Below are positions 14,153 through 63,342 of a stretch of 64,000 nucleotides of DNA, piece by piece. Source of the DNA: Patescibacteria group bacterium. GTDB lineage: Bacteria; Patescibacteriota; Minisyncoccia; Minisyncoccales; UBA10102. The notes beneath the pieces were generated by a model. It had not been told where the DNA came from, did no database searches, and worked only from the letters and a program-made list of their open reading frames with translations. The stretch is from contig JADFNM010000001.1 of NCBI GenBank assembly GCA_022563395.1, forward strand, positions 398,342 through 462,341, given 5' to 3'. Each line of letters starts with the position of its first letter. Position 1 is the first letter of the stretch. Position numbers and translations under genes: made by a program.

Positions 14153-14344
14153 TATACTTGACTCAAAGCTTACCAACAAGGGCATTGTCCACCGTTGGGG
14201 CTTCCTGGCAGTCCCGGGTTGTAATCCAGCTTGAGGGAACCTTTTTGTGAACCCGCAAACCAGTCCCCTTCTTCAAGCTGTATGTACACGCAATACAACT
14301 GGCTTGAACAATTGGTAGTCAATGTATTCACGTTGTCTATCCAG
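14153..14344. repeat. 192-bp segment identical to 53586-53777 (pilin 3' end + 17 nt downstream)
   Basis: Base-by-base comparison by eye found no mismatch. Identity stops abruptly at 14345/53778. Confidence 0.9.
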
Positions 14345-14661
14345 AGGTAGGTACTCCCTTGAGGGTCTTTTGGGGTTGGGTCTAAGTACTTGCCGTCATC
14401 TACACCATTGCAGGCTGGGGGATTGATGCAGGGAATCTTTGAAGGAAGAGAGGATCCTGCAATCTGGGAGTACAGCTCATCATCCGAATAATCCAGCTCC
14501 ATTGCAAGCGTTATCTGTCGAATGTCAGACTGGCGCCTAGCATCCCTGGCCTTTGCCCGTGCTCCCCCCAGGGACACTAAAATACTGGAAGACAAAATGC
14601 CAATGATAGCTATTACCACCAAGAGCTCAATTAAGGTGAATCCTTTCTGCTTTTGAGACAT
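14170..14661 (-). CDS. type IV pilin (candidate major pilin)
   Basis: MSQKQKG|[18 protein letters not shown]. It is the first pilin after pilC, is followed by a hairpin, and ends in Cys-rich ..GGQCPCW. Confidence 0.9.
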   Translation of the reverse strand: MSQKQKGFTLIELLVVIAIIGILSSSILVSLGGARAKARDARRQSDIRQITLAMELDYSDDELYSQIAGSSLPSKIPCINPPACNGVDDGKYLDPTPKDPQGSTYLWIDNVNTLTTNCSSQLYCVYIQLEEGDWFAGSQKGSLKLDYNPGLPGSPNGGQCPCW

Positions 14662-48513: not shown

Positions 48514-49080
48514 TCAATATCTCCTTAATGAGATTAAGGATTCCTTAATTTCATTAAGGAAAAATTGCTTTCTATGCAACACCGCAAGGGCAAGTTCGTA
48601 TGCTCCAACAAACACTCCGACAAAGAAGAGGTCTCCCAGTAGAGTATATTTCAAGAAGGGGAGACCCATTGTATAAGAAAGCATAAGACCTTCTAGGGTT
48701 GGGGCGTACAAAGGAGAAAAAGCCCACACGGCAAAGTTGGTGAAGAGATAAAAGAGAAACGATCCTGCCAGGGTTGCCAGTGTTATGGTTCCAAGGTTCT
48801 TTCTGCCTTTGATAAGCAGGCCAAAGATACCATAGAACAGAAAGCTTCCGTACACCACAAGCATTAACTTTACATCATAAAACCCAATGACAAGGTCAGC
48901 CAAAAACATCACGGCCAATGGGAGGACAAGGGCCCACCTGCTTTTTCTGGCAAGATATATGCCGGCAAACAAAGCCAAAGCACCTACCGGAGTAAAGTTT
49001 GGGGGGTGAGGAATCAGGCGCCCTGCCAAAGCAATTCCTAGGGCAGCCAACAAAAATCCAATAAGAAGATGCCGCTTCAT
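48514..49080 (-). CDS. polytopic membrane protein, DUF6580-like putative transporter (family assignment from memory)
   Basis: 188 aa with 5-6 TMs and N-terminal LIPHPPNFTPVGALALFAGIY. The last ~15 codons read through AT palindromes at 48523-48559. Confidence 0.55.
   Translation of the reverse strand: MKRHLLIGFLLAALGIALAGRLIPHPPNFTPVGALALFAGIYLARKSRWALVLPLAVMFLADLVIGFYDVKLMLVVYGSFLFYGIFGLLIKGRKNLGTITLATLAGSFLFYLFTNFAVWAFSPLYAPTLEGLMLSYTMGLPFLKYTLLGDLFFVGVFVGAYELALAVLHRKQFFLNEIKESLISLRRY
48523..48559. repeat. paired AT palindromes CCTTAATGAGATTAAGG-att-CCTTAATTTCATTAAGG
   Basis: They overlap the 3' coding end of ORF 48514-49080. Confidence 0.85.
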
Positions 49081-53585: not shown

Positions 53586-53777
53586 TATACTTGACTCAAA
53601 GCTTACCAACAAGGGCATTGTCCACCGTTGGGGCTTCCTGGCAGTCCCGGGTTGTAATCCAGCTTGAGGGAACCTTTTTGTGAACCCGCAAACCAGTCCC
53701 CTTCTTCAAGCTGTATGTACACGCAATACAACTGGCTTGAACAATTGGTAGTCAATGTATTCACGTTGTCTATCCAG
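53586..53777. repeat. 192-bp segment identical to 14153-14344
   Basis: See 14153-14344. It covers the last 58 codons plus stop of ORF 53603-55081 and 17 nt downstream. Confidence 0.9.
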
Positions 53778-55081
53778 GCATACGAACCTCCCCCTTGAGG
53801 ATCTGTGGGGACGGGATCTAAATACTTGCCATCACCTATACCATTGCAGGATGGAGGATTGGTACAGGGAATCTTTGAAGGAAGAGAGGATCCTGCAACC
53901 TGGGAATACATCTGATCATCCGAATAATCCAGCTCCATTGCAAGGGTAATTTGACGAATGTCAGCCTGACGCCTGGCATCGCGTGTCGTTTCTCTTGCCA
54001 AATTGAGACTCAAATCAGATTGGCTGCGTGCGTCGCGCGTCGTTTCTCCTGCCGAATTGAGACTCCAAAAAAGGGTTGAAAGAATTATGGCAAGGATAAT
54101 CAAAATTCCAAGAATTCCAAGAATTCCAAGAATTCCGATAATAATAAAAGTTGCCTTCTTTCTTCTGGTTGGCGTAAAAACAACCTCTCCTTTTACGGCT
54201 TTTAGATTGCTATACACTAAAAACGCATAAGTCATTGTCAATGGGGTCAAAAACAATCCAATAACAATACGACTAATTTCCTCCCCGAAAGGAATCTTCA
54301 GAAAGCTAAAAATAAGAATTGGAACTAAAGAAATTATAAAAGATATTACGCCGATAAAAAAGAAACGCCAAAATACACTACCCCATTTACCTTTTACATA
54401 CTCACGACTCTTTAATAGAGCGTTCATTCCTTTTAGGTCTTCTGCAATTAAAACAAACACTGCCAAACTAAACCAGACAGCAAAAATAATTCCGGGCACA
54501 ATCAAAAGAAAAAATCCACCAAGAGTAATAAATCCTACTAACAAAGAAACCCACCAGTAGGAAAATATTTTGTGCCATCCCCGCCGATACGACTCCATTA
54601 CTCCAATCCTCTCTTGACTATCTTTCACAGCATACAGTAACGCTATTTGCCCCCATACTTGGCTAATAAAAGTAATTACAAAAAATAAAATAGCCAAAAG
54701 AATAAGCAAGCCAATGCCACCAGCAGCAAATTTTGAAAAAAGTAGACTAGTACCCAAAAGTCCACCGCCGGCAGAAATAGCGAGGACCGCTATTGATACT
54801 AACATCGGAATTACCATCACACCCAAAAATGTGCCAAGCCTTTGTTTATATATAGTCCATGCTTGGCCAAAAATCGCTGTAGCACCCGGTAAAGAAGAAA
54901 TGGTTTGCGCTGGCGGCGGGGCTGGTTGCGATTGGTTAGTAGGATTTTCTATAAGAGAAAAAGCCTCATCAATATCTTGCATCTGCCAACCATTAGCCAT
55001 TAGAGAACTTTTAATTTGTTCTTTGTTCGCTCCTTGTTGTAGCTGTTGCTTGATATAATCAAGCAATTGTTGATTAATCAT
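53603..55081 (-). CDS. chimeric polytopic membrane protein with C-terminal type IV pilin head domain (no prepilin cleavage site)
   Basis: 492 aa. The order is an N-terminal helical domain (MINQQLLDYIKQQLQQGANKEQIKSSLMANGW), about 7 TMs, duplicated ETTRDAR(S/R)Q linkers, then a ~125-aa domain colinear with pilin 14170-14661. Confidence 0.8.
   Translation of the reverse strand: MINQQLLDYIKQQLQQGANKEQIKSSLMANGWQMQDIDEAFSLIENPTNQSQPAPPPAQTISSLPGATAIFGQAWTIYKQRLGTFLGVMVIPMLVSIAVLAISAGGGLLGTSLLFSKFAAGGIGLLILLAILFFVITFISQVWGQIALLYAVKDSQERIGVMESYRRGWHKIFSYWWVSLLVGFITLGGFFLLIVPGIIFAVWFSLAVFVLIAEDLKGMNALLKSREYVKGKWGSVFWRFFFIGVISFIISLVPILIFSFLKIPFGEEISRIVIGLFLTPLTMTYAFLVYSNLKAVKGEVVFTPTRRKKATFIIIGILGILGILGILIILAIILSTLFWSLNSAGETTRDARSQSDLSLNLARETTRDARRQADIRQITLAMELDYSDDQMYSQVAGSSLPSKIPCTNPPSCNGIGDGKYLDPVPTDPQGGGSYAWIDNVNTLTTNCSSQLYCVYIQLEEGDWFAGSQKGSLKLDYNPGLPGSPNGGQCPCW
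54104..54139. repeat. 9-bp tandem repeat AATTCCAAG x3 (+1 partial) encoding (GIL)n in the last TM helix
   Basis: aattccaag aattccaag aattccaag aattccgat. Any length change would stay in frame. Confidence 0.85.
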
Positions 55082-58238: not shown

Positions 58239-58415
58239 ATGTTAATAGACCAAAAACTCAACAATCAATTCCCTTCGTTTGAAGATAACGAAAACACGGA
58301 GATCCCCTTGGAAGAACCGGGGAGCGGTTCTTTTGAAGATGTAGATGACGAGGAAGAGGATGACGATGACGATGACGATGACGACGTAGAAGACGACTCG
58401 GAAAAAAAGGAGTAA
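58239..58415 (+). CDS. small hyper-acidic protein (hypothetical)
   Basis: From the internal ATG: MLIDQKLNNQFPSFEDNENTEIPLEEPGSGSFEDVDDEEEDDDDDDDDDVEDDSEKKE (58 aa). Confidence 0.35.
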   Translation: MLIDQKLNNQFPSFEDNENTEIPLEEPGSGSFEDVDDEEEDDDDDDDDDVEDDSEKKE

Positions 58416-58641
58416 AAAAAACGGTTCTGCAATCCTTTCAAGAGAATATTGGTTTCATGGTCTTGTTCAATGAGCTAACCTTTTGTATCAACCACCTTTT
58501 GCAAGGTTGTAATCATATCATTTTTCGCAGAGAGCAAATCTGAGGATTCTTCCTTCTCTTCGTGGTCATGCTCTCATGGAAGTTCCTTTTTGGAGGAGCT
58601 TCCTTTTTCTTATTATATCTGCCTAAAAACACATAAAAGTC

Positions 58642-58860
58642 CGCATATCGCCTTAATGAAATTAAGGATTCCTTAATTTCATTTAGGAACTATTCGAGTG
58701 TTTGAACTGGGGTCCCACTCCACAGCTTATTATAACCTTAGAGGACTGGAAATATATGTCTATTATGCGAGAAAAACTCCTGGAAATCAAAGCGTTGTGC
58801 CCAACCTAACTCCCCAGTCCAAAGCTTATTATACTTTTAGAAGATACAGAATATATGGCT
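58642..58860 (+). repeat. 219-bp direct repeat, left copy (AT palindromes + two promoter/RBS/micro-ORF units)
   Basis: It aligns without indels to 60042-60260 at a constant 1400-bp offset, and is roughly nine-tenths identical by eye. Confidence 0.9.
58756..58809 (+). CDS. micro-ORF L1, MSIMREKLLEIKALCPT
   Basis: Preceded by TATAAC..AGAGGA-N10-ATG. Compared with R1 there are 5 synonymous and 0 nonsynonymous differences across REKLLEIK. Confidence 0.45.
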   Translation: MSIMREKLLEIKALCPT

Positions 58861-58893
58861 GGTTTAAAGCAGAATTTATTGCAATTGACTTAA
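58855..58893 (+). CDS. micro-ORF L2, MAGLKQNLLQLT
   Basis: Same upstream unit (TATACT..AGAAGA..ATG). The body lies outside the repeat. Confidence 0.25.
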   Translation: MAGLKQNLLQLT

Positions 58894-58926
58894 CCTCGGA
58901 ATCCACCCTCCCATAGAAGACATAAA

Positions 58927-59955
58927 TTACGTAAAGAAATCACGCTTGGTTTCGTCTGAATTAAACCCCGAAAAACCACCTTCTTTGATAGAAAACATTT
59001 CCCCATGTGTCGATATGCTCTTTTTCACTTTTCTAACGACTTTCTCAGCGTTCTCTGCTGTATCTGCTACAACCAATGCCTTATACCCCATTTTGGGTAA
59101 ATTATTCTTTAAGATTTCCAGCAACAGTGGATCGCCAGCACTCCACCCGATAATCAGGACTCTATCTATGTTTGGAAGAACACGCTCAAGTGTTTGGATA
59201 TGACTTAACGGACATATATAATCATCTTTCTCGTTCAATGGAAGTGCAAGAGCAGGAAATTTAAGGAATTCTCGACTGCCAGTATTTTTACGAGCAAATT
59301 CTTGTTTATGGTAGGGCGCTATCTTTTCTTTCCGCAGATTCTCAAGAAGTCCGGGATTTTCAAGATACAACTGAAAATTGGTTTTTCGTTCTTCGCTACT
59401 AGATGCAAAACTATCCCTTGGTAAGGCATATATCCAATCATGAGAACCATGCAATTTAATCACTTTCAGATCACCCTCTACATAGTCTTTCATCGCTTGG
59501 GGTGGCCCGCCCGGAATATTGCGTTCAAATAACGTATCGTAGTTAAATGTCACTATACATGCCTTGCCGTCCGCATAAGTATCTATGCTATTAATAAGGT
59601 CTCTATAATTATTTATACTATGCATTCTTTTTTTTCTAGGAACACCAGCGTCAACTGAAATAGTCTCAAATAATACCTGTAGATAAAATTCTAATGCGGC
59701 AAAATGAGAACGCATCCGAGAGGAATGACTTGATTGTTTTTTTAACTCAGTTAGTACTTCTTCAAAGCTACGCTTCTTCCCCTTTACCTGTTGAATAACA
59801 CTAGAAAGCAAAGACCCAGCCCCAGGATACCTATCTAAAAGTTCAGGGTTAAGAAACTCATCATCAGTTAAATGTATGGTCAAAGGACCAACTTTCCCCA
59901 GAGGAGAGTAATCATATGATGCACCTGCACCGAAAATAATAAGTGGATACGCCAT
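58927..59955 (-). CDS. stand-alone SIR2-like (SIR2_2-type) domain protein, predicted NAD-consuming enzyme
   Basis: MAYPLIIFGAGASYDY, VTFNYDTLFE, VIKLHGSHDW and VLIIGWSAGDP. The start is trimmed to ATG 59955 because the longer track ORF reads through hairpin 59967-59998. Confidence 0.75.
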   Translation of the reverse strand: MAYPLIIFGAGASYDYSPLGKVGPLTIHLTDDEFLNPELLDRYPGAGSLLSSVIQQVKGKKRSFEEVLTELKKQSSHSSRMRSHFAALEFYLQVLFETISVDAGVPRKKRMHSINNYRDLINSIDTYADGKACIVTFNYDTLFERNIPGGPPQAMKDYVEGDLKVIKLHGSHDWIYALPRDSFASSSEERKTNFQLYLENPGLLENLRKEKIAPYHKQEFARKNTGSREFLKFPALALPLNEKDDYICPLSHIQTLERVLPNIDRVLIIGWSAGDPLLLEILKNNLPKMGYKALVVADTAENAEKVVRKVKKSISTHGEMFSIKEGGFSGFNSDETKRDFFT

Positions 59956-59966
59956 GTCAGATAGTC

Positions 59967-59998
59967 TACCAAAAAACCGCCTCAAAGGCGATTCTTTG
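59967..59998. repeat. conserved hairpin junction element, copy 1 (TACCAAAAAACCGCC-tcaaa-GGCGATTCTTTG)
   Basis: Its flanks are nearly identical to those at 61836-61867 and 62577-62607, and the loops differ. Confidence 0.8.
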
Positions 59999-60009
59999 AT
60001 TGAACATAT

Positions 60010-60026
60010 CCTAAATCTCGTTTAGG
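60010..60026. repeat. AT palindrome CCTAAATCTCGTTTAGG
   Basis: Same word as at 30581-30596 and 27797-27813. Confidence 0.85.
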
Positions 60027-60041
60027 AACTAATGATTCTGA

Positions 60042-60260
60042 CGCATATCGCCTAAATGAAATTAAGGAATCCTTAATTTCATTTAGGAACTATTCGAGTG
60101 TTTGAACTGGGGTCCCAGTCCAAAGCTTATTATAACTTTAGAGGACTGGAAATATATGGCTGGCATGAGAGAGAAACTCTTGGAGATTAAAGTGTTGTGC
60201 CCAAGATAGCTCCCCAGTCCAAGGCTTATTATACTTTTAGAGGATGCGGAGTATATGGCT
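60042..60260 (+). repeat. 219-bp direct repeat, right copy
   Basis: See 58642-58860. Confidence 0.9.
60156..60209 (+). CDS. micro-ORF R1, MAGMREKLLEIKVLCPR
   Basis: Same frame and length as L1. The stop is TAG versus TAA. Confidence 0.45.
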   Translation: MAGMREKLLEIKVLCPR

Positions 60261-60299
60261 AGTATCAGGGAAAAGCTTCAATATGTTGCTAGTTTTTAG
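60255..60299 (+). CDS. micro-ORF R2, MASIREKLQYVASF
   Basis: It shares M-x-x-[MI]-R-E-K-L with L1 and R1, and ends 81 nt before the methyltransferase ATG. Confidence 0.3.
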   Translation: MASIREKLQYVASF

Positions 60300-60380: not shown

Positions 60381-61217
60381 ATGAATAAGAAGTTTGAAGA
60401 GATAAAAAAGAAAGTTGGGATTCCTTATTTTGAGGATGAAAACTTTTTACTGTTCAACCAAGATGCCATTGCATCCTTAGAAAAACTAACCTCTCGGATA
60501 TTTGATCTAACTGTAACAAGTCCTCCTTATAATATAGGTAAAGAGTATGAGAAGATTAGGGGGCTAAAAAACTATATAGCTTGGTCTCATCAATGGATAA
60601 AAGCTGTCTATGAATGTACTAAACCCCAGGGGTCTTTCTGGCTTAATCTTGGATACCTTGATATGAATAATAAGGCAAAAGCTATCCCCATTATATATCT
60701 TTTGTGGGAGCACATTCCTTTCTACTTAATTCAAGAAGTCATCTGGCACTATGAAGCAGGGGTTACTGCAAAAAAGTTCCTTGCTCCAAGGAATGAAAAA
60801 TTCCTCTGGTACGTAAAAGACGCCAGATCCTATACTTTCAATCTTGATAATATTAGAGATCCAAACGTTAAATATCCCAACCAAAAAAAGAATGGGAAAT
60901 TACGATGTAATCCGTTTGGAAAAAATCCTGGAGACGTTTGGGATTTTCCAAAAGTTACTTCTGGAGACAAGCGTAGTTCCAAAGAACGCACAAAACATCC
61001 TGCTCAATTCCCAATCGCAATTATAGACCGTATCCTTAAAGCATCTTCTAACAAAGGGGATTTTGTACTAGATCCCTTTATTGGTTCAGGTACTACCGCT
61101 GAATGTGCGTTAAGAAACGGACGAAAAGTGGTTGGTTTTGAAATAAAAAAAAGCTATTGCGATATCGCTATAGATAGATATAAGTCTGCAAAAGATAAGC
61201 TCAAAAAAACTATCTAG
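60381..61217 (+). CDS. DNA methyltransferase, beta-class N4-cytosine/N6-adenine (SPPY)
   Basis: DLTVTSPPYNIGKEY (motif IV) precedes FVLDPFIGSGTTAECA (motif I). Confidence 0.85.
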   Translation: MNKKFEEIKKKVGIPYFEDENFLLFNQDAIASLEKLTSRIFDLTVTSPPYNIGKEYEKIRGLKNYIAWSHQWIKAVYECTKPQGSFWLNLGYLDMNNKAKAIPIIYLLWEHIPFYLIQEVIWHYEAGVTAKKFLAPRNEKFLWYVKDARSYTFNLDNIRDPNVKYPNQKKNGKLRCNPFGKNPGDVWDFPKVTSGDKRSSKERTKHPAQFPIAIIDRILKASSNKGDFVLDPFIGSGTTAECALRNGRKVVGFEIKKSYCDIAIDRYKSAKDKLKKTI

Positions 61218-61792
61218 AGTAAGTTTAAAAGCTTAAACTTCATAGCTTCTACGCTGAGCCTAGATTGCTGCCCTGTAGGGGCTTTTTGTGCTATCCAATC
61301 AGAATGCTCAATCCATCCAAATCTTATCTTCGTTATTTGAGGTAACTCTTGCTGTACTTTCTTGTCAAAATTTATGACGAGATAATATCCTTCTTTGGAC
61401 TTTTGAGTACCTTCTGTTGCCTCTTGACCATAACTCCGGTTTCCATACACTCCACTATTACTTGAAGATGTCTTAATCTCAAAAGAATAATCATCATTAG
61501 AAAAATATACCATATCCTTTTCCTTTTTAGATTTTCCAATTCGCCAAGCACTAGGATCTTTTTTTTGCAAATTATAGGCAATAAGAATATGCAAAAAATT
61601 GCCTATCATCTGAGGAGTAAGATTAATGTCCTTCCCTATCTGAAGAACTCCTCCTATCTTGCTCTTAAAAATCTGCTCCCACGATTTAAGACAAACTTCA
61701 AGAATGCCTTCCTTATCTAAAGGATGCTCTTCAACTAATTTTTCAGTAATAGCTAACCAATCCTTTGGCTGTTTTTTAGTATATGGATTCAC
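61214..61792 (-). CDS. putative type II restriction endonuclease (PD-(D/E)XK-like)
   Basis: 192 aa, convergent with the MTase and overlapping it by 4 nt. It carries a candidate D..E-x-K motif (DDYSFEIKTS). No family name assigned. Confidence 0.5.
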   Translation of the reverse strand: MNPYTKKQPKDWLAITEKLVEEHPLDKEGILEVCLKSWEQIFKSKIGGVLQIGKDINLTPQMIGNFLHILIAYNLQKKDPSAWRIGKSKKEKDMVYFSNDDYSFEIKTSSSNSGVYGNRSYGQEATEGTQKSKEGYYLVINFDKKVQQELPQITKIRFGWIEHSDWIAQKAPTGQQSRLSVEAMKFKLLNLL

Positions 61793-61835
61793 TCAAACAC
61801 AATTATACTCTAATTCCTTCAACATGACTCAAGTA

Positions 61836-61867
61836 TACCAAAAAACCGCCTATATGGCGATTCTTTG
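61836..61867 (-). terminator. conserved hairpin junction element, copy 2 (terminator-like)
   Basis: The minus strand reads CAAAGAATCGCC-atata-GGCGGTTTTTTGGTA, 9 nt after the stop of ORF 61876-62061. Confidence 0.6.
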
Positions 61868-61875
61868 GTTTAAAA

Positions 61876-62068: not shown

Positions 62069-62566
62069 TTACTTACAAGTCCCGTGCGATACTAAGGTAT
62101 CCAAACCAAATCCAACTGTCTCAATATACTTGTTATCAAGTGATAACTTTATCGAAAAGGCTCTTGCCTCTATTGGTTCTAAAATAGTAAACAACCCGCT
62201 TTCATTGCTTACAACATTATAACTATCACACGGCTTATTGTCGCACCTGTATACTATACTATTGTTCTCGTCATATAAAATAAACACCGTTGGCTTTACT
62301 GGCTTGCAACCTGTCTCACTACATTGTTGCTTTGTCTCTGGCAAACATATTTTAGTATAAAGCGGTAGTTGATAAGAGAGAGCAGATACATCAATATCAA
62401 ATGTTAAACCACCTTTAACCCCACCTAAAAACTCATCAACTTCTTCGTTGACCCCTTCTTTTCCTGTTTGTGGCTGGCTCTGTTGTGATGTATACCAATA
62501 AAAACCAACTCCTAAAACTACCAAACCGATACCGATGATATATTTGTATTCCTTGAGTTTTTCCAT
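62069..62566 (-). CDS. membrane-anchored hypothetical protein
   Basis: 165 aa with TM IIGIGLVVLGVGFYWY and a Cys-containing ectodomain. Confidence 0.55.
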   Translation of the reverse strand: MEKLKEYKYIIGIGLVVLGVGFYWYTSQQSQPQTGKEGVNEEVDEFLGGVKGGLTFDIDVSALSYQLPLYTKICLPETKQQCSETGCKPVKPTVFILYDENNSIVYRCDNKPCDSYNVVSNESGLFTILEPIEARAFSIKLSLDNKYIETVGFGLDTLVSHGTCK

Positions 62567-62576
62567 ATCCCAATTC

Positions 62577-62607
62577 TACCAAAAAACCGCCTGTCTGGCA
62601 ATTCTTT
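62577..62607 (-). terminator. conserved hairpin junction element, copy 3
   Basis: The minus strand reads AAAGAATTGCC-agaca-GGCGGTTTTTTGGTA, 10 nt upstream of ATG 62566. Confidence 0.5.
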
Positions 62608-62719
62608 AAAAAGTATAATAAGGCCAATCACTTCCCCCTATGGGACACGTTTAGAACTTTAGATTGGAAACAAATTATACAGGAATTACTGAGTTAGAAT
62701 ATGACCATTACCTCAAAAT

Positions 62720-63274: not shown

Positions 63275-63342
63275 TTGTATAGATAGAAGAGATTTTTACT
63301 GGTTAGCTCTATCTTAGACGGTGTTAAACGCATGTTTAACTA

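Follow-up and report, generated by a model that had tools for sequence, protein, structure and literature searches.

Micro-ORFs around a SIR2-like gene of a Patescibacteria group bacterium as probable detached tails of large serine recombinases

The window analysed here, a stretch of 64,000 nucleotides from a Patescibacteria group bacterium (contig JADFNM010000001.1), contains two long direct repeats that bracket a SIR2-like gene and carry small open reading frames (micro-ORFs). We explain these micro-ORFs as the distal ends of longer modules, each combining the detached tail of a large serine recombinase (LSR) with half of a recombination site, that would mark the joints between gene cassettes; we put the probability of this explanation at about two in three. 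The modules are homologous to LSR C-termini, begin at the centre of a dyad, stand in arrays of recurrent anatomy and are under purifying selection on their reading frame.

The repeated module and its reading frame

The repeats, both read on the plus strand, are 233 nt long (58642–58874 and 60042–60274) and 88% identical, without indels and at an offset of 1400 nt. The initial annotation of this DNA had described 219-bp repeats at the same constant offset, and those 219 nt are the best-conserved part of the 233. Each copy consists of a palindrome, a junction module (1a or 2a) and the beginning of a second module (1b or 2b). The AT palindromes reported for each copy are present in both as a nested AT-rich palindrome, CCTTAATGAAATTAAGGAWTCCTTAATTTCATTTAGG (58655–58691 and 60055–60091, no strand). 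The two units per copy in which a box is followed by a spacer and an ATG were also recovered, as a 99-nt sub-unit made up of the box CCCAGTCCAAAGCTTATTATA, a spacer of about 21 nt, ATG and a short ORF. At up to three mismatches the box has four matches in the window, compared with none expected from 100 shuffles. The ORFs listed earlier at 58756–58809, 60156–60209 and 60255–60299 are correct in position and peptide, and a fourth, MAGLKQNLLQLT, lies at 58855–58893. Within the shared REKLLEIK codons the five differences are indeed all synonymous (CGA/AGA, GAA/GAG, CTG/TTG, GAA/GAG, ATC/ATT); over the whole first ORF, copies 1 and 2 differ at 13 of 54 nt, and four codons are changed nonsynonymously. 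Public contigs of the same strain (L001–L004; L numbers denote loci, P numbers database proteins) end at the repeat and added nothing for comparison.

The micro-ORFs had been taken as self-contained, each with its own −10 element, Shine–Dalgarno (SD) sequence and start codon. That view was not upheld, since the coding signature continues upstream through both elements and the methionine is not conserved. The micro-ORF frames of the window are already open 45–69 nt 5′ of each ATG. In 15 of 15 copies the frame CTC CCC AGT CCA AAG CTT ATT ATA (LPSPKLII) passes through the supposed −10 box and SD into the micro-ORF, and the upstream open frame reaches a sharp homology boundary at GCTCC. The module is 40–45 codons long (LPSPKLIIT.ED..YM..MKEKLLEIK...), with the micro-ORF as its distal part. 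The spacer between box and ATG varies as a protein does (x-E/Q-D/N-x-x-Y), and indels in this supposedly non-coding part keep the frame, with one codon added in Planctomycetes, four in L032 and one in P0287. The supposed start methionine is replaced by isoleucine in about 11 of 51 relatives and by leucine in L005.

Selection on the frame was measured in copies found by an exact scan for the 21-nt box with one genome per species, which gave 11 loci in other genomes. These are metagenome-assembled genomes labelled Patescibacteria/Saccharibacteria or Planctomycetes/Pirellulales, plus one Methanosarcinales bin that is probably misbinned, because a bacterial-type cassette promoter is present in it. 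At all 11 loci the box is followed by M..M.EKL.EIK... at a fixed distance of 21 or 24 nt. The micro-ORF frame is open in 11 of 11 copies, while stops interrupt the other two frames in 8–9 of them, and the mean synonymous divergence (pS) is 0.90 against a nonsynonymous divergence (pN) of 0.27. This bears out the earlier suggestion that the peptides, and not the DNA alone, are under selection. In the tail codons 16–28, compared over 15 copies, pS was 0.85 (saturated) and pN 0.28. The head codons 1–15, comprising box and spacer, had a pS of only 0.37, in part due to the exact-match box scan by which the copies were picked; synonymous sites are constrained here too, and the head is therefore under DNA-level constraint added to the coding constraint. 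The contrast between head and tail fits a putative binding site embedded in coding sequence.

The module as a recombinase tail

The module is the predicted C-terminal tail of a clade of LSRs, because in several database proteins it is contiguous with recombinase sequence. In P0357, P0319, P0302 and P0313 it continues in frame from the zinc-ribbon/coiled-coil region of an LSR. P0357 (296 aa) has a Zn_ribbon_recom domain (PF13408, E = 5.7e-9) and then ...EKVIISSNW followed by LPSSAGIITLLEDVDYLSTLKEKLNIIKE, so that VIISSNW runs directly into LPSS...KEKLNIIKE. In P0319, a stretch matching residues 393–488 of the L021 LSR (an intact protein of 588 aa; 42% identity, E = 5e-22) leads into LLPSPKLIITLEDWNYMSMMKEKLLEIK, a tail nearly equal to the window sequence. 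The same C-terminal region plus module occurs in P0302, P0313, P0325 and P0347, and the 40 open codons 5′ of the L010 copy (LFWDKSLVQDKKIVRAVPTQLVRILLQEKQVIIRSDW) are the LSR C-terminal region as found in P0313. LSR genes are present in L010, L021 and L025.

Relatives of the module were sought more widely with a 45-aa profile, which gave 51 hits among 5.8e9 proteins, all small called ORFs, and with an exhaustive hidden Markov model search of 1.84e9 representatives, which gave 129 cluster representatives. All matches share LPS[PS]KLII.LENRDY.A.MKEKL.EIK, and in all of them the likeness starts at LPS, with unrelated sequence upstream. More than 100 relatives thus defined come from Patescibacteria and Planctomycetes metagenomes. 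Between these two groups the box keeps its nucleotide sequence, in a comparison biased by the scan's demand for an exact match. The micro-ORF peptides belong to no Pfam or NCBIfam family, and the exact peptides are absent from a collection of 15 billion. A phage or plasmid origin was not indicated: two DNA patterns had no matches in IMG/VR, the back-translated peptide pattern had four there, all unrelated, and distant blastn searches yielded nothing beyond chance matches to phages and plasmids. Such arrays are not described in the literature searched, exact motifs included. Two other sources of the module were rejected. One was a long host gene, not a recombinase, that would end in the module, but no such parent protein is present in either protein library. 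A tRNA-derived attachment (att) site, considered in view of arrays that abut tRNA genes, showed a weak T-arm/acceptor likeness and was superseded by the LSR-tail match.

In the window, module 1a (58687–58809, plus strand) is the open frame ELFECLNW followed by GPTPQLIITLEDWKYMSIMREKLLEIKALCPT and a stop, and includes the ORF at 58756–58809; it is by this homology a detached LSR tail that would retain about eight codons of the recombinase body. Module 1b (58810–58893, plus strand; LPSPKLIILLEDTEYMAGLKQNLLQLT and a stop) has the core CTCCCC as its very first letters, follows the 1a stop in frame and without a gap, and is degenerate in its distal part. Module 2a (60087–60209, plus strand) reads ELFECLNW followed by GPSPKLIITLEDWKYMAGMREKLLEIKVLCPR and a stop. 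Its nearest relative is the single module of L006, a syntenic locus, to which it is closer (86% DNA identity) than to copy 1a (80%). Module 2b (60210–60299, plus strand; LPSPRLIILLEDAEYMASIREKLQYVASF and a stop) includes the ORF at 60255–60299.

In L010, L015, L021 and the window an inverted repeat is centred no more than about 3 nt from the homology boundary. The inverted arms are perfect over 17 nt around a 25-nt spacer in L010 and over 12 nt around a spacer of 25 nt in L015, and L021 has 10-nt arms around 26 nt inside the intact LSR gene. The window ‘a’ units have 11-nt arms around ‘gt’, inner arms only, amounting to 24 bp. This dyad, TTTGAACTGGG-gt-CCCAGTCCAAA, is found at 58701–58724 in copy 1 and at 60101–60124 (no strand) in copy 2, where it is centred on the homology boundary. 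Overall, the dyad-symmetric sites span 24–59 bp. Serine recombinases exchange strands at a central dinucleotide, and we propose that the boundary dyad is the crossover centre of a candidate serine-recombinase site. A boundary so uniform in all copies would not be expected from random decay.

A second tail type was found in a shorter site. On the cargo strand this site reads GTTCTAACATCGTCCAG-n5-GGAGC and follows genes in L005–L007, L011–L014, L032, L034, L035 and the window. Read on the module strand it has the same GCTCC start and the same frame, and it encodes either L[RP]xLDDVRTC... and a stop or a tail of 29–39 aa such as LPLQDAFRTVDWKEVKEELEKLRIVLG... and a stop. The long form is 54% identical over 26 aa to residues 556–581 of the 588-aa L021 LSR (E = 7e-7). 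A type-2 detached LSR tail of the window, FPLWDTFRTLDWKQIIQELLS followed by a stop (62632–62697, plus strand), resembles the L021 LSR tail LLDEFRTVDWKQIKTEL and converges on a 184-aa gene. A degenerate short junction site, GTTTAACACCGTCTAAGATAGAGCTAA, lies on the minus strand at 63300–63330 between a 213-aa gene and the 184-aa gene, as judged by eye against the site consensus. The centre of the sites varies, from 5 nt through a 29-nt hairpin (L005) and about 45 nt (L032) to the module of about 100 nt.

Cassette arrays and a proposed mechanism

In L007/L014, L032, L034, L035 and the window, the modules form arrays in which they alternate with one to three cargo genes on the opposite strand. The cargo of the arrays includes methyltransferases, LigT, nucleoside deoxyribosyltransferase, HAD, MazG, restriction-modification (R-M) and SIR2 proteins; a two-transmembrane (2TM) DUF5676 protein, HD/AAA proteins and a helicase also stand beside modules. 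At 8 of the 11 other loci the neighbouring gene runs towards the module, and in two of them only 0–33 nt separate it from the micro-ORF stop. Assemblies break at the modules. The cassettes have in common a conserved promoter, which we call motif B (AAAGAATCGCC-loop-GGCGGTTTTTTGGTAKAMT), with a small hairpin in the spacer between a TCGCCA/TTGCCA −35 and a TG-extended −10. Motif B ends 7–30 nt before the start codon, so leaders would be very short or absent. On the minus strand of the window it stands directly upstream of the SIR2-like gene (59963–60004) and again at 61832–61873 and 62573–62614, and it is also present in L005, L011, L012, L014, L032 and L035.

In the mechanism that we propose, the module starts a few bases from the centre of a dyad-symmetric site inside the 3′ end of a recombinase gene, and the invariant 25-nt box would be at once coding sequence (LPSPKLII) and the right half-site of the recombination site. 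Recombination at the central dinucleotide would split the tail from the body. The outcome would be arrays of core-plus-tail modules, of at least two tail types, alternating with cargo cassettes whose genes lie on the opposite strand, each with its own promoter. The window from 58.6 to 64 kb would be one such array, and the SIR2-like gene with its promoter one cassette. The inserted segment would comprise tails 1a and 1b, the SIR2-like gene, its promoter and the palindrome, with exchange at or near the ‘a’ core, and the entry of this cassette would have produced two repeat copies with tails diverged to the right of the core. This fits the uneven divergence of the two repeats, which mismatch at 2 of 69 positions left of the junction core and at 27 of 164 right of it (Fisher p = 0.004), and the closer likeness of 2a to the L006 module than to 1a; the break in divergence at the core and the different cassettes of L006 are indirect evidence of recombination between the sites. 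We infer that the cassettes are moved by an LSR acting in trans, and that the tail carried on each would keep the recombinase gene intact after insertion, by a logic like that of integrons. The tails may be maintained through periodic rejoining to the recombinase (tail replacement), or as free micropeptides made from the internal ATG.

A broader form of this proposal is considerably more tentative. It would place in Patescibacteria and Planctomycetes an integron-like capture system run by an LSR with its attachment site in the 3′ end of its own gene. Mobile cassettes would carry a half-site with a replacement C-terminal tail; insertion would leave the recombinase intact and push the older tail downstream, and defence and accessory arrays would be built in this way. 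Alternative tails (LPSPKLII...EKLLEIK as opposed to LDDVRT or DAFRTVDWK) could then alter the properties of the enzyme or be released as micropeptides. If the array model is true, it is a second and mechanistically unrelated solution to the problem solved by integrons, the capture and shuffling of single-gene cassettes, and it would operate in the very small genomes of the candidate phyla radiation (CPR), in which little is understood about defence islands and gene flux. Serine integrases are also in demand for genome engineering, and the 25-nt box and its dyad partners supply candidate att sites for a new clade of them.

The proposed site can be compared with several known systems. The att sites of large serine recombinases (serine integrases) such as Bxb1 and phiC31 are likewise short (about 46–59 bp here), imperfectly dyadic and exchanged at a central dinucleotide, and the boundary here is about 3 nt from the centre. 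Here, by contrast, the site is part of the 3′ coding sequence of the recombinase gene itself, so that the last 15–45 or so codons are swapped by recombination. Modules of half-site plus tail also pile up in arrays that have no recombinase body close by, and neither an attB/attP pair nor a directionality factor was identified. In SCCmec, moved by the Ccr serine recombinases, repeats of about 15–27 bp derive from the housekeeping target rlmH. Composite SCCmec islands share with the arrays the tandem serine-recombinase cassettes at one locus, the direct repeats from a gene 3′ end and the many cassettes that lack a recombinase. Here, in contrast, the repeats derive from the recombinase's own tail and include up to 45 conserved codons, the cassettes hold one to three genes, and the hosts are Patescibacteria and Planctomycetes.

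The likeness to integrons (IntI, attC) is in the small accessory or defence cassettes split by a site with conserved ends and a variable centre (5, 29, about 45 or about 100 nt), and, as in clusters of attC sites lacking integrases (CALINs), the sites occur without an adjacent recombinase. The recombinase linked to them, however, is a serine recombinase and not IntI, and the cassette genes run against the frame of the site, from promoters of their own. No IntI or other integrase was present among the inspected ORFs of the window or in Pfam scans of array genes. Identity of the sites with attC was rejected, as the DNA folds of the units and short sites did not exceed shuffled sequences in stability (z-scores of −0.76 to +2.19). 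In the integration-dependent immunity of mycobacteriophages, attP lies inside the repressor gene and a tyrosine integrase effects a one-off switch. There too a recombination site within a coding region alters the C-terminus of a protein, but the gene is that of a repressor, the enzyme a tyrosine integrase, and there is no cassette array.

Several observations weigh against our explanation. A full-length LSR with the canonical module was found in neither protein library, and the only LSR sequences there with the module are 5′-truncated fragments of up to 296 aa. No recombinase was found in the 64-kb window (ORFs of at least 160 aa at 1–44 kb and of at least 70 aa at 44–54 kb by inspection, ORFs at 58–64 kb by Pfam) or in the 12–20-kb array views of L007/L014, L032, L034 and L035. 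LSRs normally recombine two different full sites, whereas the detached modules keep one conserved half-site only. Homology between the two tail types was not significant (hhalign probability 1%). To the left of the core the repeat continues for 69 nt, so that the crossover point alone does not set its limits. Homologous recombination may have contributed to the window repeat, because this 69-nt left flank is nearly identical. Finally, module 2a and its syntenic counterpart in L006, both detached, differ at 5.5 of 10.2 synonymous sites and at 4.5 of 40.8 nonsynonymous sites (p = 0.004), a sign of purifying selection. That detached copies are so well conserved suggests that they serve a function themselves.

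That last comparison argues for the rival that survives best, which we consider doubtful as a complete account though it is compatible with detached LSR tails at cassette joints. The detached modules would be, or would have become, genes for a free micropeptide of 17–29 aa whose translation starts at the internal ATG; the purine-rich spacer would act as its SD and TATAAT/TATAAC in the box as its −10, and the peptide might be a recombination directionality or regulatory factor, or a cassette-addiction peptide. Most copies keep Y-ATG, preceded by a purine-rich stretch at a distance of 8–14 nt and by a TATAAY hexamer at about 21 nt, and canonical modules are strongly conserved while detached and never sit on a full-length LSR in the two libraries. 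In many CPR copies the core is also preceded, at 1–10 codons, by a stop, and no start codon intervenes, so these copies, if translated at all, would need an internal start. Set against this are the isoleucine or leucine that replaces the supposed start methionine, the Planctomycetes spacer without an SD-like run, the amino-acid-like conservation and in-frame indels that reach 5′ of the ATG, and a peptide that has no Pfam or NCBIfam family and is hydrophilic, which is not typical of type I toxins.

More improbable is that the modules are inert scars, decaying recombinase 3′ fragments left by old integrations, with the repeat produced by segmental duplication or homologous recombination and no present function. 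In its favour, modules 1b and 2b and those of L005 and L009 are degenerate, through early stops or loss of the ATG, the left repeat boundary does not coincide with the core, and there is no recombinase nearby in the window or in the L032, L034 and L035 views. However, the first 28 or so codons are intact in over 100 cluster representatives while synonymous sites are saturated, the box retains its nucleotide sequence between Planctomycetes and Patescibacteria (with the bias of the exact-match scan), and the boundary is identical in all copies.

Least likely of all are portable promoter or leader modules that would drive the methylase in sense or silence a converging toxic SIR2 gene by antisense: copy 2 does point into the methylase gene and copy 1 into the SIR2 3′ end, other neighbours converge on the module as described and the box contains a −10-like hexamer, but a consensus scan found no sigma-70-type promoter in the units and picked motif B instead, a separate TACAAT stands 7 nt in front of the methylase ATG, adjoining cargo is functionally unrelated (2TM DUF5676, LigT, HD/AAA, helicase, methyltransferases), and there is neither a conserved RNA structure nor an Rfam match, nor a unit at three SIR2 homologues. 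RNAalifold predicted no pairs in 12 units, and Rfam reported only tRNAs (E ≤ 1 in the window, E ≤ 0.1 in nine loci).

Leader peptides, uORF attenuators and type I toxins resemble the modules in their short ORFs with SD-like and −10-like sequences upstream. The modules differ from them in the unconserved start codon, the coding signature that extends 5′, the usually converging neighbour (8 of 11 other loci), the lack of an SD-like run in the Planctomycetes copies and the hydrophilic peptide. As to a type I toxin–antitoxin system, the peptide is charged and amphipathic (MxxMKEKLLEIKR...), no open frame was seen by eye on the opposite strand, and no Rfam family was hit. The proposal in the initial annotation that the micro-ORFs are a leader, regulator or toxin for the SIR2 or R-M genes fails on the unrelated cargo, the converging neighbours and the identity of the module as the tail of LSR fragments. 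More generally, an unusually conserved ‘micro-ORF’ preceded by promoter-like and SD-like elements can turn out to be the detached end of a gene, starting at a crossover, which is a trap for small-protein discovery.

The SIR2 cassette, its neighbours and minor observations

The cargo between the repeat copies, the SIR2-like gene (58927–59955, minus strand), encodes 342 aa from the ATG chosen by gene callers. The protein has a SIR2_2 domain (PF13289, 26.6 bits against a cut-off of 24.5) and matches the PADLOC SIR2 models weakly (E = 1.5e-5); it is a predicted SIR2-type defence effector. To the right of copy 2 lies a ScaI-like R-M pair, an N6/N4 DNA methyltransferase (60381–61217, plus strand) and a restriction endonuclease (61214–61792, minus strand). 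Linkage of the unit to SIR2 was rejected, since the three homologue contexts inspected all lack the module. Linkage to the 246-aa protein beside the L010 copy was rejected as well, with no module in five homologous loci. In L025 (4433–7029), a SIR2-like homologue directly follows an AAA_15/AAA_21 ATPase gene, and the pair is possibly a two-gene defence system. In L021 (1233–8267), a SIR2-like homologue stands beside the intact LSR, a helicase and a type III R-M methylase.

The locus can be compared with L006, the syntenic locus of a related species, which shares IF-2, three tRNAs and an acidic ORF with the window and has its one module among different cassettes. The homologue of the palindrome in L006 is the upstream region of an intact 156-aa HTH-like gene (1583–2053), of which the window keeps a 3′ remnant (58420–58627, minus strand). 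The N-terminus of the 156-aa protein resembles an excisionase/MerR-type HTH (FITIGEAAQLL...), and the intact L006 protein has no Pfam hit. The shared acidic ORF (window 58239–58415; ...DDEEEDDDDDDDDVEDDSEKKE) is small and extremely acidic, lies between the tRNA cluster and the island, and is kept in L006 in position and partly in sequence. A third nested AT-rich palindrome occurs in the window at 48527–48555, just past the tRNA-Gly terminator, where it overlaps the final codons of a 188-aa membrane ORF (48514–49080, minus strand). The sole metagenome match to the palindrome is at the orthologous position in a relative (L016, 1160–1182).

Further observations concern the sites and cassettes. 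A 165-aa membrane-anchored protein of the window (62069–62566, minus strand) starts with MEKLKEYK and is preceded by GGCCTTATTATACTTTTTAAAGA (62603–62627). The latter matches part of the box, in the same orientation as the gene, and is interrupted by motif B (nhmmer E about 1); it may be due to chance or to a module fused to a longer gene. In the Planctomycetes loci L010 (2120–2330) and L015 (6590–6790), a conserved opposite-strand ORF of about 45–50 aa, MKEKSKKVRYKRFQERIEHVAEQIANILLECWLWQDK..., converges on and overlaps the module end; it is preceded by a sequence like the short site, GGTTCCAACATCAAATGCCGGAGC. Cassettes of the Saccharibacteria type (L014 3400–3570, 4050–4227, 5500–5677 and 6530–6709; L007 810–997) share a leader of about 170 nt with a TTGACT...TATAAT promoter, a ATATCCTGTAATAGGATAT palindrome and a long hairpin (CTATCTGCTATATAAC...GTTATATAGCAGATAG), which suggests a common regulation of these cassettes. 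Just before the first cassette of L014, at 2063–2660, a tRNA gene is seemingly interrupted by an intron with a 105-aa HNH-like ORF; ARAGORN made no call there. Elsewhere in the window, the last 110 or so residues of a 492-aa membrane protein (53603–55081) form a domain that recurs, almost unchanged, at the C-terminal end of a type IV pilin-like protein of 163 aa encoded 40 kb away (14170–14661), the shared domain reading ...ITLAMELDYSDD..YSQ.AGSSLPSKIPC...GGQCPCW.

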